A stretch of DNA of 64,000 nucleotides, taken from Chloroflexota bacterium (GTDB lineage Bacteria; Chloroflexota; Anaerolineae; Anaerolineales; E44-bin32). Below the pieces are notes generated by a model that was given only the letters and a program-made list of their open reading frames with translations, did not search any database and was not told where the DNA came from. Positions 22,506-43,960 of this stretch are shown here, one piece after another (within the stretch, counting starts at the first letter, position 1; each line of letters begins with the position of its first letter). The DNA lies in the NCBI GenBank assembly GCA_022561385.1, contig JADFRG010000003.1:66049-130048 (forward strand), in the 5' to 3' direction. The position numbers and the translations under genes are program-made.

Positions 22506-22613
<108 letters not shown>

Positions 22614-22697: not shown

Positions 22698-23912
22698 ATG
22701 GCAACACTCCCGTCGCAGACGGATCGAACACCAAGGCTCTCAACGGAAGCCGTGCACGCAGGCGAGAACAGGCCCTACCCGCACCACGCCCTGACCCTGC
22801 CCATCTTCGACACGTCGACATATACCTTTGAGAACACGGCAGACCTTCGTCAATTCATGGAAGCCCGCATGTGGGGGCTGGCGGAGGGACGGGTGGAGTA
22901 TGGGCGTTATGGCAACCCCACCATCTTCGAGGTCGAGGCCCGTGTGGCGGCGCTGTCGGGCGGCGAGGCGGCGGTTCTCATGTCTTCCGGTATGGCCGCC
23001 GTCACAAGCACGTTGCTCTCACTGCTCTATGCAGGAGATCACCTGGTGATCACGGACGATTCGTACCGGCGCACCCGGCAATTTTGTTTGACTTTCCTCA
23101 AGCGCTGGGGGATCGAGTGTTCGGTGGTCCCGGCCGGAGACCTGGAGCAGCTGGAGGCCGCCATCCGTCCCGAAACCAAAGTCATCGTCTCCGAGTCGCC
23201 AACCAACCCCTACATGCGGGTCCTGGATCTCGAGCGCCTGGTGGCTATCGCGAAGCGTCACAAGGTCAAGACCCTAATCGACAGCACTTTCGCAACCCCC
23301 ATCAATCAGCGGCCGCTCGAATTTGGCGTAGACCTGGTGGTGGATTCGGCTACGAAGTACCTCGGTGGCCACAATGATCTTCTGGCCGGGGCAGTAGTGG
23401 GTTCAGAATCGCTGATGGCCATGATTCGGCAGAACCAATGGGTCCTGGGAGCCGTATGCGATCCGCATACCGCCTACCTGATCCAACGCGGGCTCAAGAC
23501 ATTGGCACTCCGCGTTCATCAACAGAACACGAGCGCCATGAAGGTGGCCGAATTCCTGGAGGCCCAGGCCGGGGTCAGTCGCGTTTGGTATCCTGGACTG
23601 CGTTCTCATCCGGATCATGATATTGCCCGCCAGCAAATGGATGGTTTCGGAGGGGTAGTAAGTTTCGAGCTTGAGGGCGATCTGGAAACTACCAGCCGAT
23701 TCATTGATGCGGTTAAGCTCCCGCTCATCGCCTCCAGCCTGGGAGGGGTGGAGACGCTGATCGAGCAGCCGGCGCTCATGTCGTACTTCGAACTTTCCAG
23801 CGAAGAGCGGATGGAGATCGGCATCAAGGACAATCTCGTCCGGCTGGCAATTGGGATCGAGAGTCCGGAGGACTTGATAGCCGACCTGGCGGAGGCGCTT
23901 AAGGTTGTGTGA
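22698..23912 (+). CDS. Cys/Met-metabolism PLP enzyme (cystathionine gamma-synthase / gamma-lyase family)
   Basis: 404 aa. PLP-lysine motif [14 protein letters not shown]. Sits under a SAM-I riboswitch. Confidence 0.85.
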
Positions 23913-32424: not shown

Positions 32425-33225
32425 TTAAGGCAGCGTTGCCATCAGCAATCCATAACCAAGCGTGCCTTCTTCGATCGTCCTGGCCGCGCTTGCCGCCACA
32501 ATTCTGGCTTCTTCGAAATCAACCCCTGGTATTTCGAGCTTTTTTACTTTGAATATCAACTCGGCGCCGAGCAGACTGGCGCGCACGTTTCTAACCGTCG
32601 TTTCAAGCACTTCCGGATGCGGCTCGATGTGATCAATTCTAAAGCCGGCTTCTTCGAGCAGGGCCGCATAACGATCCGAGGGAAGCGCCTCTGAGATGCA
32701 CACGATCTGGGCCAGGAGCCCGGATAATTCTGGCGGAAGCGGGCCCGACCGCGTGACGTCACTCAAGCCCACTCGACCTCCGGCTCTGAGCACGCGCGCA
32801 AACTCCCCGGCCGCAGTGTGTTTGTCTGGGAAGGTACAGAATGAACATTCACAAATTAGGGCATCGAAACTGCCGTCCGGAAAGGGCAATTTCTCGGAAT
32901 CTCCGAGTTCGAACCGCACGAGATGAGCCAGGCCGGCCTCTTGGGCGCGCCGTCGCGCCTGGCCCACGAGTTCTTCACTGTAGTCGATACCCACGACCTC
33001 GCATCCGAATTTCTCTGCCAGGTAAACCGCGCTCGCACCTGTGCCGGAGGCAACATCCAGCACCCGCTGTCCGGGGCGAAGATCGAGCAATTTCCCCAAC
33101 CTTTCGGTGAGCTCGAGACCGCCCGGGTGAAACGATTCTCCCAGCAGCAGTCGCGCCCAATCGCTCTCGTAAAGCGCGGCACAGCAGGTCTTGATCTCGG
33201 CGGCCGCGGGGGCGGAAGTTATCAC
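32425..33225 (-). CDS. class I SAM-dependent methyltransferase, ArsM-like with conserved Cys sets
   Basis: SAM motif I VLDVASGTGASAV. Cys sets TCC (N-terminal), ICECSFCTF and VCISEA align by eye with ArsM NCVINL and VGCLAG regions. GGRVGLSDVTRSGPLPPEL...YAALLEEAGF resembles ArsM GGRFAVSDVV...YVAKLAAAGF. Start GTG 33225 overlaps the radical SAM stop (GTGA). Confidence 0.75.
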   Translation of the reverse strand: MITSAPAAAEIKTCCAALYESDWARLLLGESFHPGGLELTERLGKLLDLRPGQRVLDVASGTGASAVYLAEKFGCEVVGIDYSEELVGQARRRAQEAGLAHLVRFELGDSEKLPFPDGSFDALICECSFCTFPDKHTAAGEFARVLRAGGRVGLSDVTRSGPLPPELSGLLAQIVCISEALPSDRYAALLEEAGFRIDHIEPHPEVLETTVRNVRASLLGAELIFKVKKLEIPGVDFEEARIVAASAARTIEEGTLGYGLLMATLP

Positions 33226-34760
33226 TTGCCTGCACCATTCAAATTGAAGGAGAAGGTCAGGGGTTCGGGATCGAATGCAAGCCCTTCCTGCTCGGCCTTC
33301 CGTCGCGATCGCTGGCGCTGCGCCAGCTGCTGGCGGGTCTGCTCCCGGTAGCCGATATTGTTGTAGGCACAGAAGGGGATCTGCTTGCCATCCGGCAGCA
33401 GGATTACCTTGCAGCACTTCATTACATTCTTTTGGTTGAAGGTCCAGGGGTCAAGGAAATCCTGGAGGGCGATCATGAACACGTGATCCGTGATGGCCGC
33501 GAGCTCCGACTCCTCCAGCAGGTCGCAGATGGAGCAGGAGAGTGCGAAGTCGCGCCCCGACTTTTCCGTTCCCGGGACGGCCGAGGAAGACCAAAGCGCC
33601 TCGAGCGTGGTCTGGATCGTCTCGGCGCTAAACTCACCGAGATCCGGCACGATCCGATTTGACACATAGTCAAGGTAGTCCTCGACCTTTAGGAAACGTG
33701 GCAGAGGCAGGACCGTCTCACCCTCGACATAGGCATAAGTCATCGAGTTACAGGTGGGGAAGCAGCAAGGGACCGGGAAGAAGTCTTTCTCCACAAAAAG
33801 CCCATCCGTCTGCGCTTCAATCAACTTGATAATGTCAGGGTTCGTCATTCGAGTCAGCGGGTCATGGTCCTCATGACGGCCTGAGTGAAATGCAGGTTGA
33901 AATGTGATCCCGCGGACCGCTGGATGTTTCAGCCCAAATCTGACGATCTCGCCTAGCTCATGCTCATTGACATCTCGCTCAACCGCCGGCACGAGAATGA
34001 CCGTACAGCCGATCTCCGCCAGCCGATCCAGTGCGCGCAGCTTCTGATCCAGAATATCGGCCTCGCCCCTTAGGATGCGGTAGGTTTCCGACTCGAAGCC
34101 GTCAAACTGAAAATAGATTGCGGGGCGCGGATCGATCCCGGCCAGCTGCTCGAGAAATCCGTCGTCATCGGCGATGCGTTTGCCGTTGGTATTGAGCATA
34201 ACGCGTCGGATATTCCGACGGGTGGCAGCCTCCAGCATCGGGATGATGTCTGGATGGATCGTGGGTTCCCCTCCCGAAAACTGAACCGCCTCCGGTTGTC
34301 CCTCGGTTTCCACGAAGTGATCCAGGATTCCTTCCACTTCCTCTAGCGTGAGATTGAAACCCACGCCGGCGTCCGCAAAGCAGAGCGGGCAATCCATGTT
34401 GCATGCGGTATTTACCTCGATGATGCCCAAGCAAGCATGCTGTTGATGGTCGGGGCAGAGACCGCAGTCGTGCGGGCAGCCGTGAACGATATCGGTCGAA
34501 AACTTAAGCGGAATCGTGCCCGGTTTGTTGTAACGCGCGGAGCCCACGTAGGCCTCGGCGTCTCCATAGATCAGCGCCTCGAAGGGTCCATGCTCCGGAC
34601 AGCGCTTCCGCATGTAGACCTTGTCGTCACGCAGCAGAATGTGAGCATCGATCACCCGCCGGCAGACCGGGCAGATGCTGCGCGTGAGCTCAAAAAATAC
34701 GGAATCCGAATCTTGCTTTACTGTGTTGGGCGAAGGTGAGATCATCAAAGGGGTGTCCAT
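33222..34760 (-). CDS. multi-cluster radical SAM enzyme with N-terminal zinc-ribbon (COG1964 / Tes-MJ0619-like architecture)
   Basis: 512 aa. N-terminal CPVCRR...KRCPEHGPF, extra cluster motif GCPHDCGLCPDHQQHAC, radical SAM motif CNMDCPLC. Confidence 0.8.
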   Translation of the reverse strand: MDTPLMISPSPNTVKQDSDSVFFELTRSICPVCRRVIDAHILLRDDKVYMRKRCPEHGPFEALIYGDAEAYVGSARYNKPGTIPLKFSTDIVHGCPHDCGLCPDHQQHACLGIIEVNTACNMDCPLCFADAGVGFNLTLEEVEGILDHFVETEGQPEAVQFSGGEPTIHPDIIPMLEAATRRNIRRVMLNTNGKRIADDDGFLEQLAGIDPRPAIYFQFDGFESETYRILRGEADILDQKLRALDRLAEIGCTVILVPAVERDVNEHELGEIVRFGLKHPAVRGITFQPAFHSGRHEDHDPLTRMTNPDIIKLIEAQTDGLFVEKDFFPVPCCFPTCNSMTYAYVEGETVLPLPRFLKVEDYLDYVSNRIVPDLGEFSAETIQTTLEALWSSSAVPGTEKSGRDFALSCSICDLLEESELAAITDHVFMIALQDFLDPWTFNQKNVMKCCKVILLPDGKQIPFCAYNNIGYREQTRQQLAQRQRSRRKAEQEGLAFDPEPLTFSFNLNGAGK

Positions 34761-39054: not shown

Positions 39055-39459
39055 CTAGGAGCCGCTCGACACCTTCGAAATTGCGTCCTCGACTACGTCT
39101 TCCAGAGCTCCAGCCGATTGGGGCCCGAAGGCGCGCCAGAGCACATCCCCTTGAGGATCTAGGATTACATAGCTGGGATGACCGGGTAGGCCATAATGTT
39201 GGAAGACGCTCCTACCCTGACCCGAGGCCGCGTCAAGAGCGCGTATTTCTACCTGATCGCCGAATGTTGATTCCAGCCCGTTCACGACGGGCGTCATTTG
39301 CTCTCACTGAAATCAACCCTCGGTATAGAAGTAAAGGAAGGTCGGCTTGTCTGGTGCTGGGGTGATCGGTGTGGATGAATTGGCCGATGCACACCCGGTA
39401 AGCAGCAGCGCCACCAGGGTCAGGCTGACCGCGGCAACTTTTTTCTTCGGGATATCCAT
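39055..39459 (-). CDS. thioredoxin-fold lipoprotein with two in-frame TGA at the CxxC positions (candidate UxxU selenoprotein)
   Basis: The two track ORFs (39313..39501 and 39055..39297) are in the same frame. The junction reads TTC TAT ACC GAG GGT TGA TTT CAG TGA GAG CAA ATG ACG CCC, i.e. FYTEG-*-FQ-*-EQMTPVVNGLE, aligning with Trx xxFWAxWCxxCxxxxPxxxxL. Lipobox LLTGC. Cis-Pro region LPGHPSYVILD. Start is 39459 (MDIPKKK) or 39501. Confidence 0.65.
39276..39292 (-). other. SECIS-like hairpin downstream of the two TGA codons
   Basis: GCCCGU-CGUGA-ACGGGC: 6-bp stem with a GU-containing loop. Begins 11 nt after the second TGA (39306..39304) and 20 nt after the first (39315..39313). Confidence 0.35.
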
Positions 39460-39623: not shown

Positions 39624-40253
39624 ATGCCTTCAGAGAAAAAGACAAAGAAGGTCAGTCGAAAACAACTTCAAGCGGAAAAAAAGCAGCGAGCTGCGCGTCG
39701 CAGAAATTGGCTTTGGGGGCTAGGGGCGGTAATCGTATTGTTCGTAGGATATTCCTTTGCCAGCTCCGGGGCCGGGCCCAAACCTGGTATCACGGAAGGG
39801 CTTTCTGATGAAGAGATAGCTGCCTTGCCCGCTGCCCCAGTAGTAGGCGCTCGTGCGCCCGACTTTACGATTTTAGATGTAGAGGACAACTCCTTTACGT
39901 TAAGCGAGGTCTTGGGAAAACCCACTGCCATCATGTTTTTCCACACTTGGTGACAGCCTTGTAATCAGAGTGCCCCCGCGTTGCGGCGGGCCGAAGTGGA
40001 GTTTGGGGACGACCTAACGATCCTATTTGTTGATGAACAAGAGCCGTTGGATGCGGTGCTTGAGTTTGCTGATAAATATGGGCTTACGAGCACATTCCTG
40101 ATGGATCGGTCCGGTGCCGTCGGTTTTAGTTATCGCCTGACCTCGACACCCACGACCTATTTCCTGGATCCGAGCGGGGTCGTGCAGGACATCCGGATCG
40201 GTGCAGTGAGTTACAGTTGGCTGGAGAAAAATGTGGAAAGAAGCCTGCAGTGA
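39624..40253 (+). CDS. membrane-anchored TlpA/ResA-like thiol:disulfide oxidoreductase with in-frame TGA at the first Cys of CxxC (candidate UxxC selenoprotein)
   Basis: Track ORFs 39624..39953 and 39981..40253 share a frame. The junction is CAC ACT TGG TGA CAG CCT TGT AAT, i.e. FFHTW-*-QPC-NQSAPAL, matching FWxxWCxPCxxExPxL. GARAPDF upstream and YRLTSTPTTYFLDPSGVV downstream. Confidence 0.7.
39972..39991 (+). other. SECIS-like hairpin downstream of TGA 39951-39953
   Basis: GCCCCCGC-GUU-GCGG(C)GGGC: 8 bp with one bulged C and a GU in the loop. Starts 18 nt after the TGA. Confidence 0.35.
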
Positions 40254-40850: not shown

Positions 40851-41690
40851 TTGAGTGGACAAGTGAATACCTTCTCCTTGCGGCCCGCCGCCATATTGGG
40901 AGGCGTGCTGGTTTTGGCATCCCTGGTTGTGCTCAGCCTGATCTGGGCCACATCTGCGCGTAGGTCCGGATCCAATGGCCAGCTCATTTACTTCAATGCC
41001 ACAAATGATCGCGGTGAGCTCCTCACCTATCGAGGAGGCCCTGATGTCATCGGCCCAGGCATGATGGGCACACGTCTCAGCTGCGCTTCCTGTCACGGCC
41101 AGGAAGCAAGGGGTGGCGTGCACATGATGCACATGCGGGTAATGGACGCGCCCGATATCCGCTGGTCGGTTTTAGCCGGCGAGGTTGGAGAAGAGCACGC
41201 CAGCGAAGGCGACCCCGAAGACGAGCATACGGAAGCGCATGCCGGCTACGATCTAGTGAATTTCCGCATGGCGGTAGTGGAAGGCCAGCATCCGAACGGC
41301 GAGCGGCTGAACGCTGAAATGCCACGCTGGCAGATCGGCGACGGCGATCTGAAAGACTTGGCAGAATTCTTGAGATCCCCACCGTTGCTAGAGAAAGGAG
41401 TGCTTATGATGCCTGGAGGTTTTTTCGGAGGCGGAGGATGGATCATCTTCCCCATCATTGGAGTCGTCGTCATGATGGTATTCATGTTCATGATGATGAG
41501 CCGACGGGGAGGTATGATGAGCCGACGGGGAGGTTTCGGGTCTAGTCGAGACGACTATGGCCGAAGCCCCCGAGGCCACAACACCGAGATGGGTGAGACG
41601 GAAACGCCGCTCTCGATCCTGAAAAGCAGGTATGCCCGAGGCGAAATCAGCAAAGACGAATATGCGGAGATGAAGAGCGAGCTACAGTAG
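40851..41690 (+). CDS. membrane-anchored c-type cytochrome domain read through in-frame into a SHOCT-domain membrane module
   Basis: N-terminal TM, heme motif CASCH, then (no stop) MMPGGFFGGGGWIIFPIIGVVVMMVFMFMMM...SILKSRYARGEISKDEYAEMKSELQ (SHOCT). Confidence 0.7.
   Translation: MSGQVNTFSLRPAAILGGVLVLASLVVLSLIWATSARRSGSNGQLIYFNATNDRGELLTYRGGPDVIGPGMMGTRLSCASCHGQEARGGVHMMHMRVMDAPDIRWSVLAGEVGEEHASEGDPEDEHTEAHAGYDLVNFRMAVVEGQHPNGERLNAEMPRWQIGDGDLKDLAEFLRSPPLLEKGVLMMPGGFFGGGGWIIFPIIGVVVMMVFMFMMMSRRGGMMSRRGGFGSSRDDYGRSPRGHNTEMGETETPLSILKSRYARGEISKDEYAEMKSELQ
41406..41690 (+). CDS. possible independently translated SHOCT-domain small membrane protein (nested in the cytochrome ORF)
   Basis: AAAGGAG (41394-41400), 5-nt spacer, ATGATG at 41406, in-frame. 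The 94-aa product has the usual stand-alone SHOCT protein architecture. Confidence 0.45.
   Translation: MMPGGFFGGGGWIIFPIIGVVVMMVFMFMMMSRRGGMMSRRGGFGSSRDDYGRSPRGHNTEMGETETPLSILKSRYARGEISKDEYAEMKSELQ
41493..41534 (+). repeat. perfect 21-bp tandem duplication inside the SHOCT module
   Basis: atgatgagccgacggggaggt twice, encoding MMSRRGG twice. Confidence 0.9.
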
Positions 41691-42967: not shown

Positions 42968-43960
42968 TCAATACCGAAATTCATGCACGAGCGCCAAGGT
43001 TTGAGGTCCGATTGTTCCCTCAACCATCTCGACCAACTCTCCGTCAATCCATACCCCCACTACGAATTCCTGCTCGACCTCGTTCCCGCAAGTTGCATAG
43101 TAATCCACGATCACCTGATAATTGCCTGAGGGCGCCGTGCCAGCCTTCCAGAAGATGCTCTCCAGCGGCTCGGTTGTCGCCGTGAGACAAGAACCATTGG
43201 CTTCGTATTCCAGCAAGCCCCCAGTCAACGACCGAGGATTTTCGAAGTAGATCTCCTCCTCTCGCGGATCAATTACGTGCAAATCCAAATCTGCAACAGA
43301 CTGCCAAAGAAGAGAAACCACCAGATCTCCGGTTACCTCAATCTCACCTGCCCTTGATCGCAAGGCAGCGGACCGTGGGATGGATGTCGGCTGCGGAGTC
43401 GGCAGCGATGTCGGGGTGGGGCTCGGAGGGGGTTGCACGCCACCGCAGGCAAGTGCGATCTCATAGTTCACCCCTGAATCGTCGCTGATCAGCGTGAAGC
43501 TGTAGGTTGCCCGTCTCGGCAGCAGGAAACTTCGCGTGTCCGAAGAACTTGCCCCACCGCGGGCATGAATCAGGCTCTCATCTTCGAGCTGAAGATCGAA
43601 CTGCAGGTCGGAACTGTCGCTTGCGCTGAGGTAATGCACAGAGAGCACATCCCCCGGCTCGCCCTCAATCTGCCAGGTGACGTTGCTGTGGGGAAGGAGC
43701 TCATGACGGATGGACTGGCCACAAGGCAAAATTAAAGGCAGCAAAGGCTCAGACGATGGGGTGGCGGTTTGAGGTTCGTCTCCCAAGGTGCCGCTAGAAA
43801 ACTTCCCGCTGGTCTCCTGTGAAGGACCCGCTGAAGTTGAGACGGTTACTGCAAGTAGCCCCGCTGAGAGAGCCATGCAAGCCGCCAGGCCCGCCAGCCC
43901 GGCAAGGCCTCCCGCGAGCAGAACGGGGGTGCTGCGGGCACGATCGGAGGTCCGCAGCAC
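42968..43960 (-). CDS. membrane-anchored/secreted hypothetical protein with DUF2135 (YfaP)-like C-terminal domain
   Basis: TM segment near the N-terminus, PT linker. C-terminal LDLHVIDPREEEIYFENPRSLTGGLLEYEANGSC resembles the DUF2135 motif (from memory). Confidence 0.6.
   Translation of the reverse strand: MLRTSDRARSTPVLLAGGLAGLAGLAACMALSAGLLAVTVSTSAGPSQETSGKFSSGTLGDEPQTATPSSEPLLPLILPCGQSIRHELLPHSNVTWQIEGEPGDVLSVHYLSASDSSDLQFDLQLEDESLIHARGGASSSDTRSFLLPRRATYSFTLISDDSGVNYEIALACGGVQPPPSPTPTSLPTPQPTSIPRSAALRSRAGEIEVTGDLVVSLLWQSVADLDLHVIDPREEEIYFENPRSLTGGLLEYEANGSCLTATTEPLESIFWKAGTAPSGNYQVIVDYYATCGNEVEQEFVVGVWIDGELVEMVEGTIGPQTLALVHEFRY

Follow-up and report, generated by a model that had tools for sequence, protein, structure and literature searches.

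Can two UGA codons that lie 6 nt apart in one gene both be read as selenocysteine (Sec, U), and what would such a protein do? This question is raised by a minus-strand locus (39459..39055) in a 64-kb stretch of DNA from a Chloroflexota bacterium (assembly GCA_022561385.1, contig JADFRG010000003.1), hereafter referred to as the window; all coordinates are window positions. An earlier note on this DNA had proposed that the locus encodes a thioredoxin-fold lipoprotein whose two active-site cysteines are both replaced by in-frame TGA, that is, a candidate double-UGA selenoprotein. This candidate reading is supported by the conservation of both UGAs, a covarying hairpin of the bacterial selenocysteine insertion sequence (bSECIS) type, a standard genetic code and a thioredoxin fold. 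We consider it very probable that 39459..39055 is an intact gene for a lipid-anchored extracytoplasmic thioredoxin-fold protein with the motif U-F-Q-U, both UGAs being recoded via one selenocysteine insertion sequence (SECIS).

One reading frame interrupted by two UGA codons

Translation of the minus strand revealed a single frame from 39459 to 39055 comprising 134 codons, two UGA codons included, which closes with TAG (39057-39055) and whose sole internal stops are TGA at 39315-39313 and TGA at 39306-39304. The frame reads MDIPKKKVAAVSLTLVALLLTGCASANSSTPITPAPDKPTFLYFYTEG-TGA-FQ-TGA-EQMTPVVNGLESTFGDQVEIRALDAASGQGRSVFQHYGLPGHPSYVILDPQGDVLWRAFGPQSAGALEDVVEDAISKVSSGS-TAG; with U written for TGA, the junction is ...FLYFYTEG-U-F-Q-U-EQMTPVVNGLE and the downstream tail ends in ...SSGS. 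Both the in-frame arrangement of two open reading frames (ORFs) split only by the two TGAs and the junction itself are as the earlier note had described them. The first UGA (UGA1, 39313..39315) is residue 49, at the N-terminal active-site Cys position, and lies 26 nt ahead of the apical loop of the hairpin described below; the second (UGA2, 39304..39306) is residue 52, at the C-terminal active-site Cys position, 17 nt ahead of the same loop. The product begins with a predicted signal peptide and lipobox (39391..39459, minus strand), read from the sequence as MDIPKKKVAAVSLTLVALL-L-T-G-C, in which the codon at 39393-39391 specifies the candidate lipidated Cys. The segment MDIPKKKVAAVSLTLVALL-LTGC agrees with the lipobox pattern [LVI][ASTVI][GAS]-C, and lipidation of the product by Lgt and Lsp is predicted from it; in nearly all aligned homologs a lipobox-type ...[GAS]-C likewise follows a hydrophobic stretch. 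Further downstream, a G-H-P motif (39175..39183, minus strand) places a His right before the cis-Pro of the thioredoxin fold, beside the active site. The lipobox LLTGC, the cis-Pro region and the rest of the fold, which had been called intact, were all found.

Conservation of the two UGA codons

Homologous DNA was fetched for 14 loci from species-representative genomes and for 38 metagenome loci, and 52 loci, window included, covered the site (L numbers denote loci, P numbers protein homologs). The named homolog genomes are all metagenome-assembled genomes (MAGs) of Chloroflexota (Anaerolineales, Aggregatilineales, Phototrophicaceae and others), and the homologous loci share 39-98% protein identity with the window. 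TGA-x-x-TGA occupied the same two codons in 51 of the 52 loci, L013 being the exception with TGA-x-x-TGC. UGA1 was TGA in 52/52 loci and also in the distant relatives L055, L060, L062 and L064; UGA2, TGA in 51/52, was TGC in L013 and in both L060 paralogs. Among the distant relatives from the representative search, L062 and L064 read U-x-x-U and L060 reads U-x-x-C. Sec position 1 is universal among close members, and Sec position 2 is present in about 95%. Coding conservation flanks the UGAs in one frame (upstream PAPDKPTFLYFYTDG, downstream MTPVVNGLE...GHPSY), and the aligned upstream sequences keep the signal peptide, the lipobox-type ...[GAS]-C and the strand PTFLYFYT[DE][GN] in frame. The check proposed in the earlier note, that homologs place Cys or TGA at both positions, came out in its favour, with Cys confined to a few relatives.

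A search of 5.8 billion proteins returned 47 matches, 45 of which were C-terminal fragments starting at the Met after the second TGA; the remaining two were N-terminal fragments ending just ahead of the first TGA. When 1.84 billion cluster representatives were searched without filters, 180 clusters (50% identity) were returned, and because nearly all of these consist of 73-81-residue fragments beginning at the Met just after UGA2, the interruption is family-wide. One family fragment (P0033, MHA2427678.1), named TlpA family protein, is recorded under a 'Candidatus Hermodarchaeia archaeon' (Asgard) MAG, which reflects either a binning error or a transfer.

We found no close (>35% identity) all-Cys homolog. 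The nearest all-Cys homolog, P0113 (E = 1.1e-7), is a fusion of a DsbD_TM/CcdA membrane domain with two thioredoxin domains, which read FYSGDCPICERMAPVIDGL. The family shows classical Cys/Sec exchange, since U-x-x-U, U-x-x-C and C-x-x-C relatives all occur. The residue before the cis-Pro differed among these types: all 48 distinct U-x-x-U sequences have G-H-P, three U-x-x-C relatives have Y, Q or T in place of the His, and the C-x-x-C homolog P0113 has V. The second Sec and the His before the cis-Pro therefore appear to be coupled in these sequences. On the contig of L060 (3226-4651; also L061), a formate-dehydrogenase-like operon is followed by split redox genes, namely a T-P-V-U peroxiredoxin and the two tandem U-x-x-C paralogs; this contig is from a selenoprotein-rich organism.

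A covarying SECIS-type hairpin downstream of both UGAs

The SECIS-type hairpin (39276..39292, minus strand; GCCCGU-CGUGA-ACGGGC) lies inside the codons for T-P-V-V-N-G-L. Its stem begins 11 nt past the second TGA, an Escherichia coli-like distance, as in the fdhF SECIS. Folded alone, it reaches -10.5 kcal/mol (z = -3.2), and none of 200 shuffles folded as well. In an alignment of 33 distinct sequences running from UGA1 to +63, 98% of the cells in the helix columns (24-29/35-40) are paired and 15 cells are changed on both sides; the observed pairing or covariation was reached by none of 500 shuffles, and slid controls fell to 5-50% pairing. RNAalifold recovered the same helix, and the loop bases C-G-U-G are invariant. 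Several compensatory changes are non-synonymous, such as Pro CCC to CCU together with Gly GGG to Arg AGG (L007, L009, L010 and L011) and Val GUC to Ala GCC together with Asn AAC to Arg CGC (L007). Because such compensations cost amino-acid changes, the RNA structure is selected in its own right.

The bSECIS model specifies a loop of 3-9 nt, an upper stem of 4-16 bp, a minimum free energy of at most -7.5 kcal/mol, a G within the first two loop positions, the next base being usually G or U, and a UGA-to-loop distance of 16-37 nt (PMC13188914). The window hairpin agrees with each of these values for both UGAs: its loop of 5 nt has G-U at positions 2-3, its stem is 6 bp long, the distances are 26 and 17 nt and it folds at -10.5 kcal/mol. 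The 6-bp hairpin with a GU-containing loop that the earlier note had placed at 39292..39276 was confirmed, as was its distance of 11 nt from the second TGA, but the spacing shared with relatives is that of the first. U-x-x-C relatives have a single UGA in the same register before the same hairpin as UGA1, and the UGA-to-loop distance of 26 nt is also that of a neighbouring TlpA-like gene, described below. Because the distance of UGA1 matches both, the second UGA is the added one.

Two additional pairings were rejected. A lower stem joining the UGA1 region to sequence after the hairpin is predicted in the window copy, yet only 50.8% of cells pair family-wide; an alternative 5-bp hairpin involving the invariant AUG and the loop bases (columns 19-23/28-32) has three invariant pairs and two that are not kept, and thus no covariation support. 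A scan of the window at Rfam gathering thresholds returned nothing at the hairpin, its sole match being a SAM riboswitch elsewhere.

Thioredoxin fold of the encoded protein

With Cys at both UGA positions, the protein matched the Pfam family Thioredoxin (PF00085) at 24.9 bits against a cutoff of 23.5. In a PDB sequence search (phmmer), thioredoxins aligned across residues 35-127, with the two TGA positions falling on the thioredoxin C-G-P-C and the H-P of LPGHPSY on the cis-Pro, which bears out the position-for-position match to the thioredoxin active site that had been drawn by eye. The structure was modelled by AlphaFold2 from an alignment headed by a natural homolog, P0051, rather than by the window protein; the P0051 model (predicted local distance difference test score 89.4) has the order E-H-E-H-E-E-H with the motif at the start of helix 1. 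Its top PDB matches in Foldseek are thioredoxins, with template-modelling scores of about 0.8 relative to the target and root-mean-square deviations of 1.2-2.7 A. The features by which the thioredoxin family is recognised, namely a beta-alpha-beta-alpha-beta-beta-alpha core, a redox motif that opens helix 1 and a loop bearing the cis-Pro, are all present. The thioredoxin-like protein showed no match to AhpC-TSA (PF00578) or to NF040769 (SelL_rel_redox), which only the neighbouring TlpA-like gene matches. No NCBIfam selenoprotein model reached its cutoff (seleno_TsoX, 13.9 vs 52 bits), the best NCBIfam match being thylak_slr1796 (29.1 vs 140 bits).

Alternative explanations for the two UGA codons

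Could the two stops mark a decaying pseudogene, or a split gene that yields a 48-residue lipopeptide and a separately translated 80-residue fragment? The current annotation fits such a reading, as GenBank/PGAP lists only an 80-residue 'hypothetical protein'; gene callers arrive at this fragment because an ATG (Met; 39295-39297, minus strand) follows the second UGA by two codons, and it is invariant in every locus, with variable neighbouring residues. However, no conserved ribosome-binding site precedes this ATG in the locus sequences, and a protein starting there would have neither the signal peptide nor the active site. Decay is real in the lineage L023-L028: in L023, L024 and L026-L028 the thioredoxin-like gene no longer encodes a signal peptide, owing to a deletion, and has substitutions at conserved residues (SYVILD has become SPVIPD), the same gene has an extra stop in L026-L028, and the TlpA-like gene has two extra stops in all five loci. 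These losses may represent loss of the Sec trait in that lineage, to which the window is closely related: window 42968-43960 and the flanking gene of L028 (L028:179-1168) share 98% identity. None of these signs is seen in the window copy. In 51/52 diverged loci the two stops coincide exactly with the catalytic positions and no further lesion is present, in line with the earlier argument against decay, and the hairpin is maintained at an amino-acid cost; the comparative data already contradict a pseudogene or split gene, which we regard as very improbable. A reassigned code, with TGA read as Trp or Gly throughout, or a sequencing or assembly error can be practically dismissed. A reassigned code might seem to be favoured by five public 'full-length' family entries that read W-x-x-W (P0051, P0089, P0102, P0119 and P0195), but in P0051, the sole one of them for which DNA was read, both W are TGA translated with code 4, and Trp at both thioredoxin catalytic positions would be functionally senseless. 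As shown for P0051, the W-x-x-W entries are a database artefact that could mislead homology searches. In the window, TGA is the commonest ordinary stop and terminates 15 of the 31 long non-overlapping ORFs; the genetic code is therefore standard, as the earlier note had also concluded. Base-call error is excluded by four independent assemblies: the identical gene with both TGAs was read at four places, in two ENA metagenome assemblies and in the NCBI MAGs GCA_022626265.1 and GCA_022568065.1, and many contigs on record contain the exact 80-residue downstream fragment.

The main rival, though an unlikely one, is that a tRNA of the tRNA-ReC/SelC* type, delivered by SelB at the same SECIS, decodes one or both UGAs as Cys, which would make the protein U-x-x-C, C-x-x-U or C-x-x-C in vivo. 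Sequence alone does not tell Sec from Cys insertion, and the U-x-x-C relatives show that Cys is tolerated at position 2. Moreover, tRNA-ReC-like tRNAs, which read UGA as Cys where a SECIS is present, occur in ~56% of genomes with UXXU hydrogenases vs ~2.3% of other Sec-type genomes (PMC13582414). However, no tRNA of this type was detected in the window or in the fetched loci, the second TGA has been retained in 51/52 loci though one base change would give Cys, and the second UGA occurs strictly together with the His before the cis-Pro, which suggests a distinct chemistry.

The neighbouring TlpA-like gene and genomic context

Divergently oriented from the thioredoxin-like gene is a TlpA/ResA-like gene (39624..40253, plus strand) for a membrane-anchored protein, a second selenoprotein candidate with the motif W-U-Q-P-C and a UGA at 39951-39953. 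It reads FFHTW-TGA-QPC and matches the Pfam families AhpC-TSA (5.6e-20) and Redoxin (3.4e-15). Its UGA is kept in L001, L002, L015 and L018 and in the decayed L023, L024 and L026-L028, and the more distant homolog in L003 has the Cys form WCVPC. A GC-rich SECIS-type hairpin (39972..39991, plus strand; GCCCCCGC-GUU-GCGG(C)GGGC) has a GUU loop starting 26 nt past the UGA; it is identical or nearly so in relatives, in which variation is too small for a covariation test. A mechanical scan of the window for TGA read-through ORFs recovered the UGA at 39951, and by eye no other convincing candidate emerged.

The plus-strand gene 40851..41690 encodes a membrane protein in which a cytochrome c domain (CASCH; 21.3 bits for Cytochrom_C, equal to the cutoff) is combined with a C-terminal SHOCT domain (3e-9); it likely belongs to the same extracytoplasmic module. 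In L028 the gap from the TlpA-like gene to orf330 is ~1 kb vs 2.7 kb in the window, and the cytochrome c-SHOCT gene therefore appears to be absent there. Many family loci carry a same-strand cassette of DUF3105, the U-x-x-U gene and a monoheme cytochrome c (CSACH...PPHDxxGHTWHH). In 13 loci DUF3105 is found just upstream in the same orientation, and the cytochrome c is the next same-strand gene in 21 (including L007, L014, L029-L035, L037, L038, L041-L048 and L050); it is fused to the U-x-x-U domain in L040 (783-1436), P0050 and P0109. Ten loci have a gene for a CopA-type P1B ATPase with two HMA domains within ~3.5 kb, small membrane proteins with SHOCT domains are common near family members, and genes for cytochrome c and SHOCT proteins recur. 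A CcdA-like gene is adjacent only in L004 and L020, and not in the window. In the clade of the window, the partners are instead the TlpA-like selenoprotein candidate and the cytochrome c-SHOCT membrane protein.

Elsewhere in the window, the SAM (S-adenosylmethionine) riboswitch (RF00162, 87.3 bits; 22506-22613, plus strand) lies upstream of an ORF at 22698-23912. At 32425-34760 (minus strand), Pfam calls taken from matching loci indicate a gene for a radical SAM protein carrying an HMPTM-type zinc ribbon and, after it, one for a SAM-dependent methyltransferase that bears an N-terminal CCAALYESDW motif; no in-frame TGA was noticed in either gene.

Proposed mechanism and function

In the mechanism we propose, the single hairpin within the coding sequence (39292..39276), with G-U in its loop, would recruit SelB carrying Sec-tRNA(Sec), both UGA-to-loop distances being inside the range of bacterial SECIS elements. 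The history of the motif was likely C-x-x-C to U-x-x-C to U-x-x-U, with the second Sec most likely arising by a TGC to TGA change in front of an already working SECIS, 9 nt nearer to the hairpin. Once mature, the protein would alternate between a diselenide and a form with two selenols. It likely acts as an extracytoplasmic reductant or isomerase, or provides a Se2-His site for a soft metal, e.g., Cu(I); its partners are probably the adjacent TlpA-like selenoprotein candidate and c-type cytochromes, and its reduced state is probably maintained by a membrane electron carrier of the CcdA/DsbD type. Read with the CcdA-fused Cys homolog, the cytochrome c and copper gene context points to a thiol/selenol oxidoreductase that would act outside the cytoplasm in connection with c-type cytochromes and copper handling, in a role resembling that of ResA, CcmG, TlpA or ScsC. 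In every thioredoxin fold, the residue before the cis-Pro lies beside the active site, and as a hypothesis only, the His found there might complete a Se2-N copper site as its third ligand or assist the diselenide in catalysis.

Several points weigh against this explanation. Sec insertion itself is what we infer from the observed gene structure, conservation, RNA structure and fold. Searches for selA, selB, selD (tblastn with E. coli SelA/B/D) and tRNA-Sec (ARAGORN) covered the 64-kb window and ~360 kb of related loci and found none of them, a coverage that says nothing about the genome as a whole. At 6 bp the hairpin is short, and no lower stem is kept across the family. SelB of E. coli is reportedly strict about the UGA-to-SECIS spacing, and it is therefore an assumption that UGAs at 17 and at 26 nt are both decoded efficiently. 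Finally, no CopA, DUF3105 or CcdA gene lies near the thioredoxin-like gene in the window, and the functional context is therefore borrowed from relatives. In favour of the explanation, Chloroflexota include selenoprotein-rich genomes and Sec users (PMC13326102; PMC1794560).

Going beyond double recoding, we tentatively suggest that the family requires the diselenide: two Sec and a His would form either an extracytoplasmic redox centre of very low potential or a Se2-N Cu(I) site, in the company of a fused or adjacent cytochrome c and of copper-export genes, with the tandem UGAs (6 nt apart) served by one 17-nt hairpin. Should this less secure proposal hold, natural pairs of U-x-x-C and U-x-x-U genes with a common hairpin would allow a direct test of how bacterial SelB decodes tandem UGAs. 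Sec at both redox residues in almost all members read is found in very few other cases, and this near-universal double Sec argues that the diselenide or bis-selenolate centre itself is the selected feature. As the SECIS is minimal and the U-x-x-C relatives share the hairpin, the family offers a compact natural system for the question of how one SECIS serves two UGAs. Annotation pipelines systematically truncate these genes or, in some collections, use the wrong genetic code.

Comparison with known selenoproteins and redox systems

The family is apparently an undescribed and widespread one, absent from the 119 prokaryotic selenoprotein families of a 2026 inventory and without an NCBIfam model. 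That inventory reports UxxU only in Prx-like/SelL-type proteins, the HMA 'putative mercuric reductase' and FmdB-like proteins, and lists the thioredoxin (PF00085) and thiol:disulfide interchange (PF13098) selenoproteins as UxxC (PMC13188914, Table 1). The Global Ocean Sampling (GOS) study had seen UxxU only in the Prx-like family, and a September 2026 paper described UXXU in group 4 [NiFeSe] hydrogenases, leaving open whether one SECIS serves both UGAs (PMC13582414). The statement in the earlier note that UxxU is known mainly from SelL does not hold, given its occurrence also in the HMA metal-binding family, in FmdB-like proteins and in these hydrogenases.

Like the window protein, SelL (UxxC/UxxU; Shchedrina et al. 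2007, cited in PMC2398784; PMC13188914) has a bacterial thioredoxin-superfamily fold with U-x-x-U. However, SelL is peroxiredoxin-like (AhpC-TSA), whereas the window protein would be a minimal, 110-residue, lipid-anchored thioredoxin outside the cell with an invariant His before the cis-Pro. Both UGAs of SelL are reportedly served by one SECIS, with formation of a diselenide. The bacterial UxxC thioredoxin and thiol:disulfide interchange selenoproteins share with the window family the fold, the first Sec position and an intragenic SECIS just downstream, and the U-x-x-C relatives L013 and L060 resemble this type; these selenoproteins contain one Sec, whereas about 95% of the members read here have Sec in place of the resolving Cys as well. 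The UXXU group 4 [NiFeSe] hydrogenases likewise have two UGAs three codons apart upstream of one predicted SECIS (PMC13582414). In these large cytoplasmic enzymes, however, the pair ligates Ni and Cys-type relatives are common, in contrast to the small exported protein and minimal covarying hairpin of the window family.

In the HMA family, U-x-x-U takes the place of a metal-binding CxxC, and members of the window family often lie near a copper/heavy-metal ATPase; the HMA fold is ferredoxin-like rather than thioredoxin-like, and metal binding by the window protein would be hypothetical. ResA, CcmG, TlpA and ScsC are likewise membrane- or lipid-anchored extracytoplasmic thioredoxin folds tied to c-type cytochromes and copper genes. 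They are fed by CcdA/DsbD, and correspondingly the closest all-Cys homolog of the window family is fused to DsbD_TM and a TlpA-like gene is adjacent in the window; unlike the window protein, they have CxxC and a larger domain of the Redoxin/AhpC-TSA type. Among thioredoxin-fold selenoproteins with an intragenic SECIS, the family described here is a new family and a new motif variant, but not a new principle.

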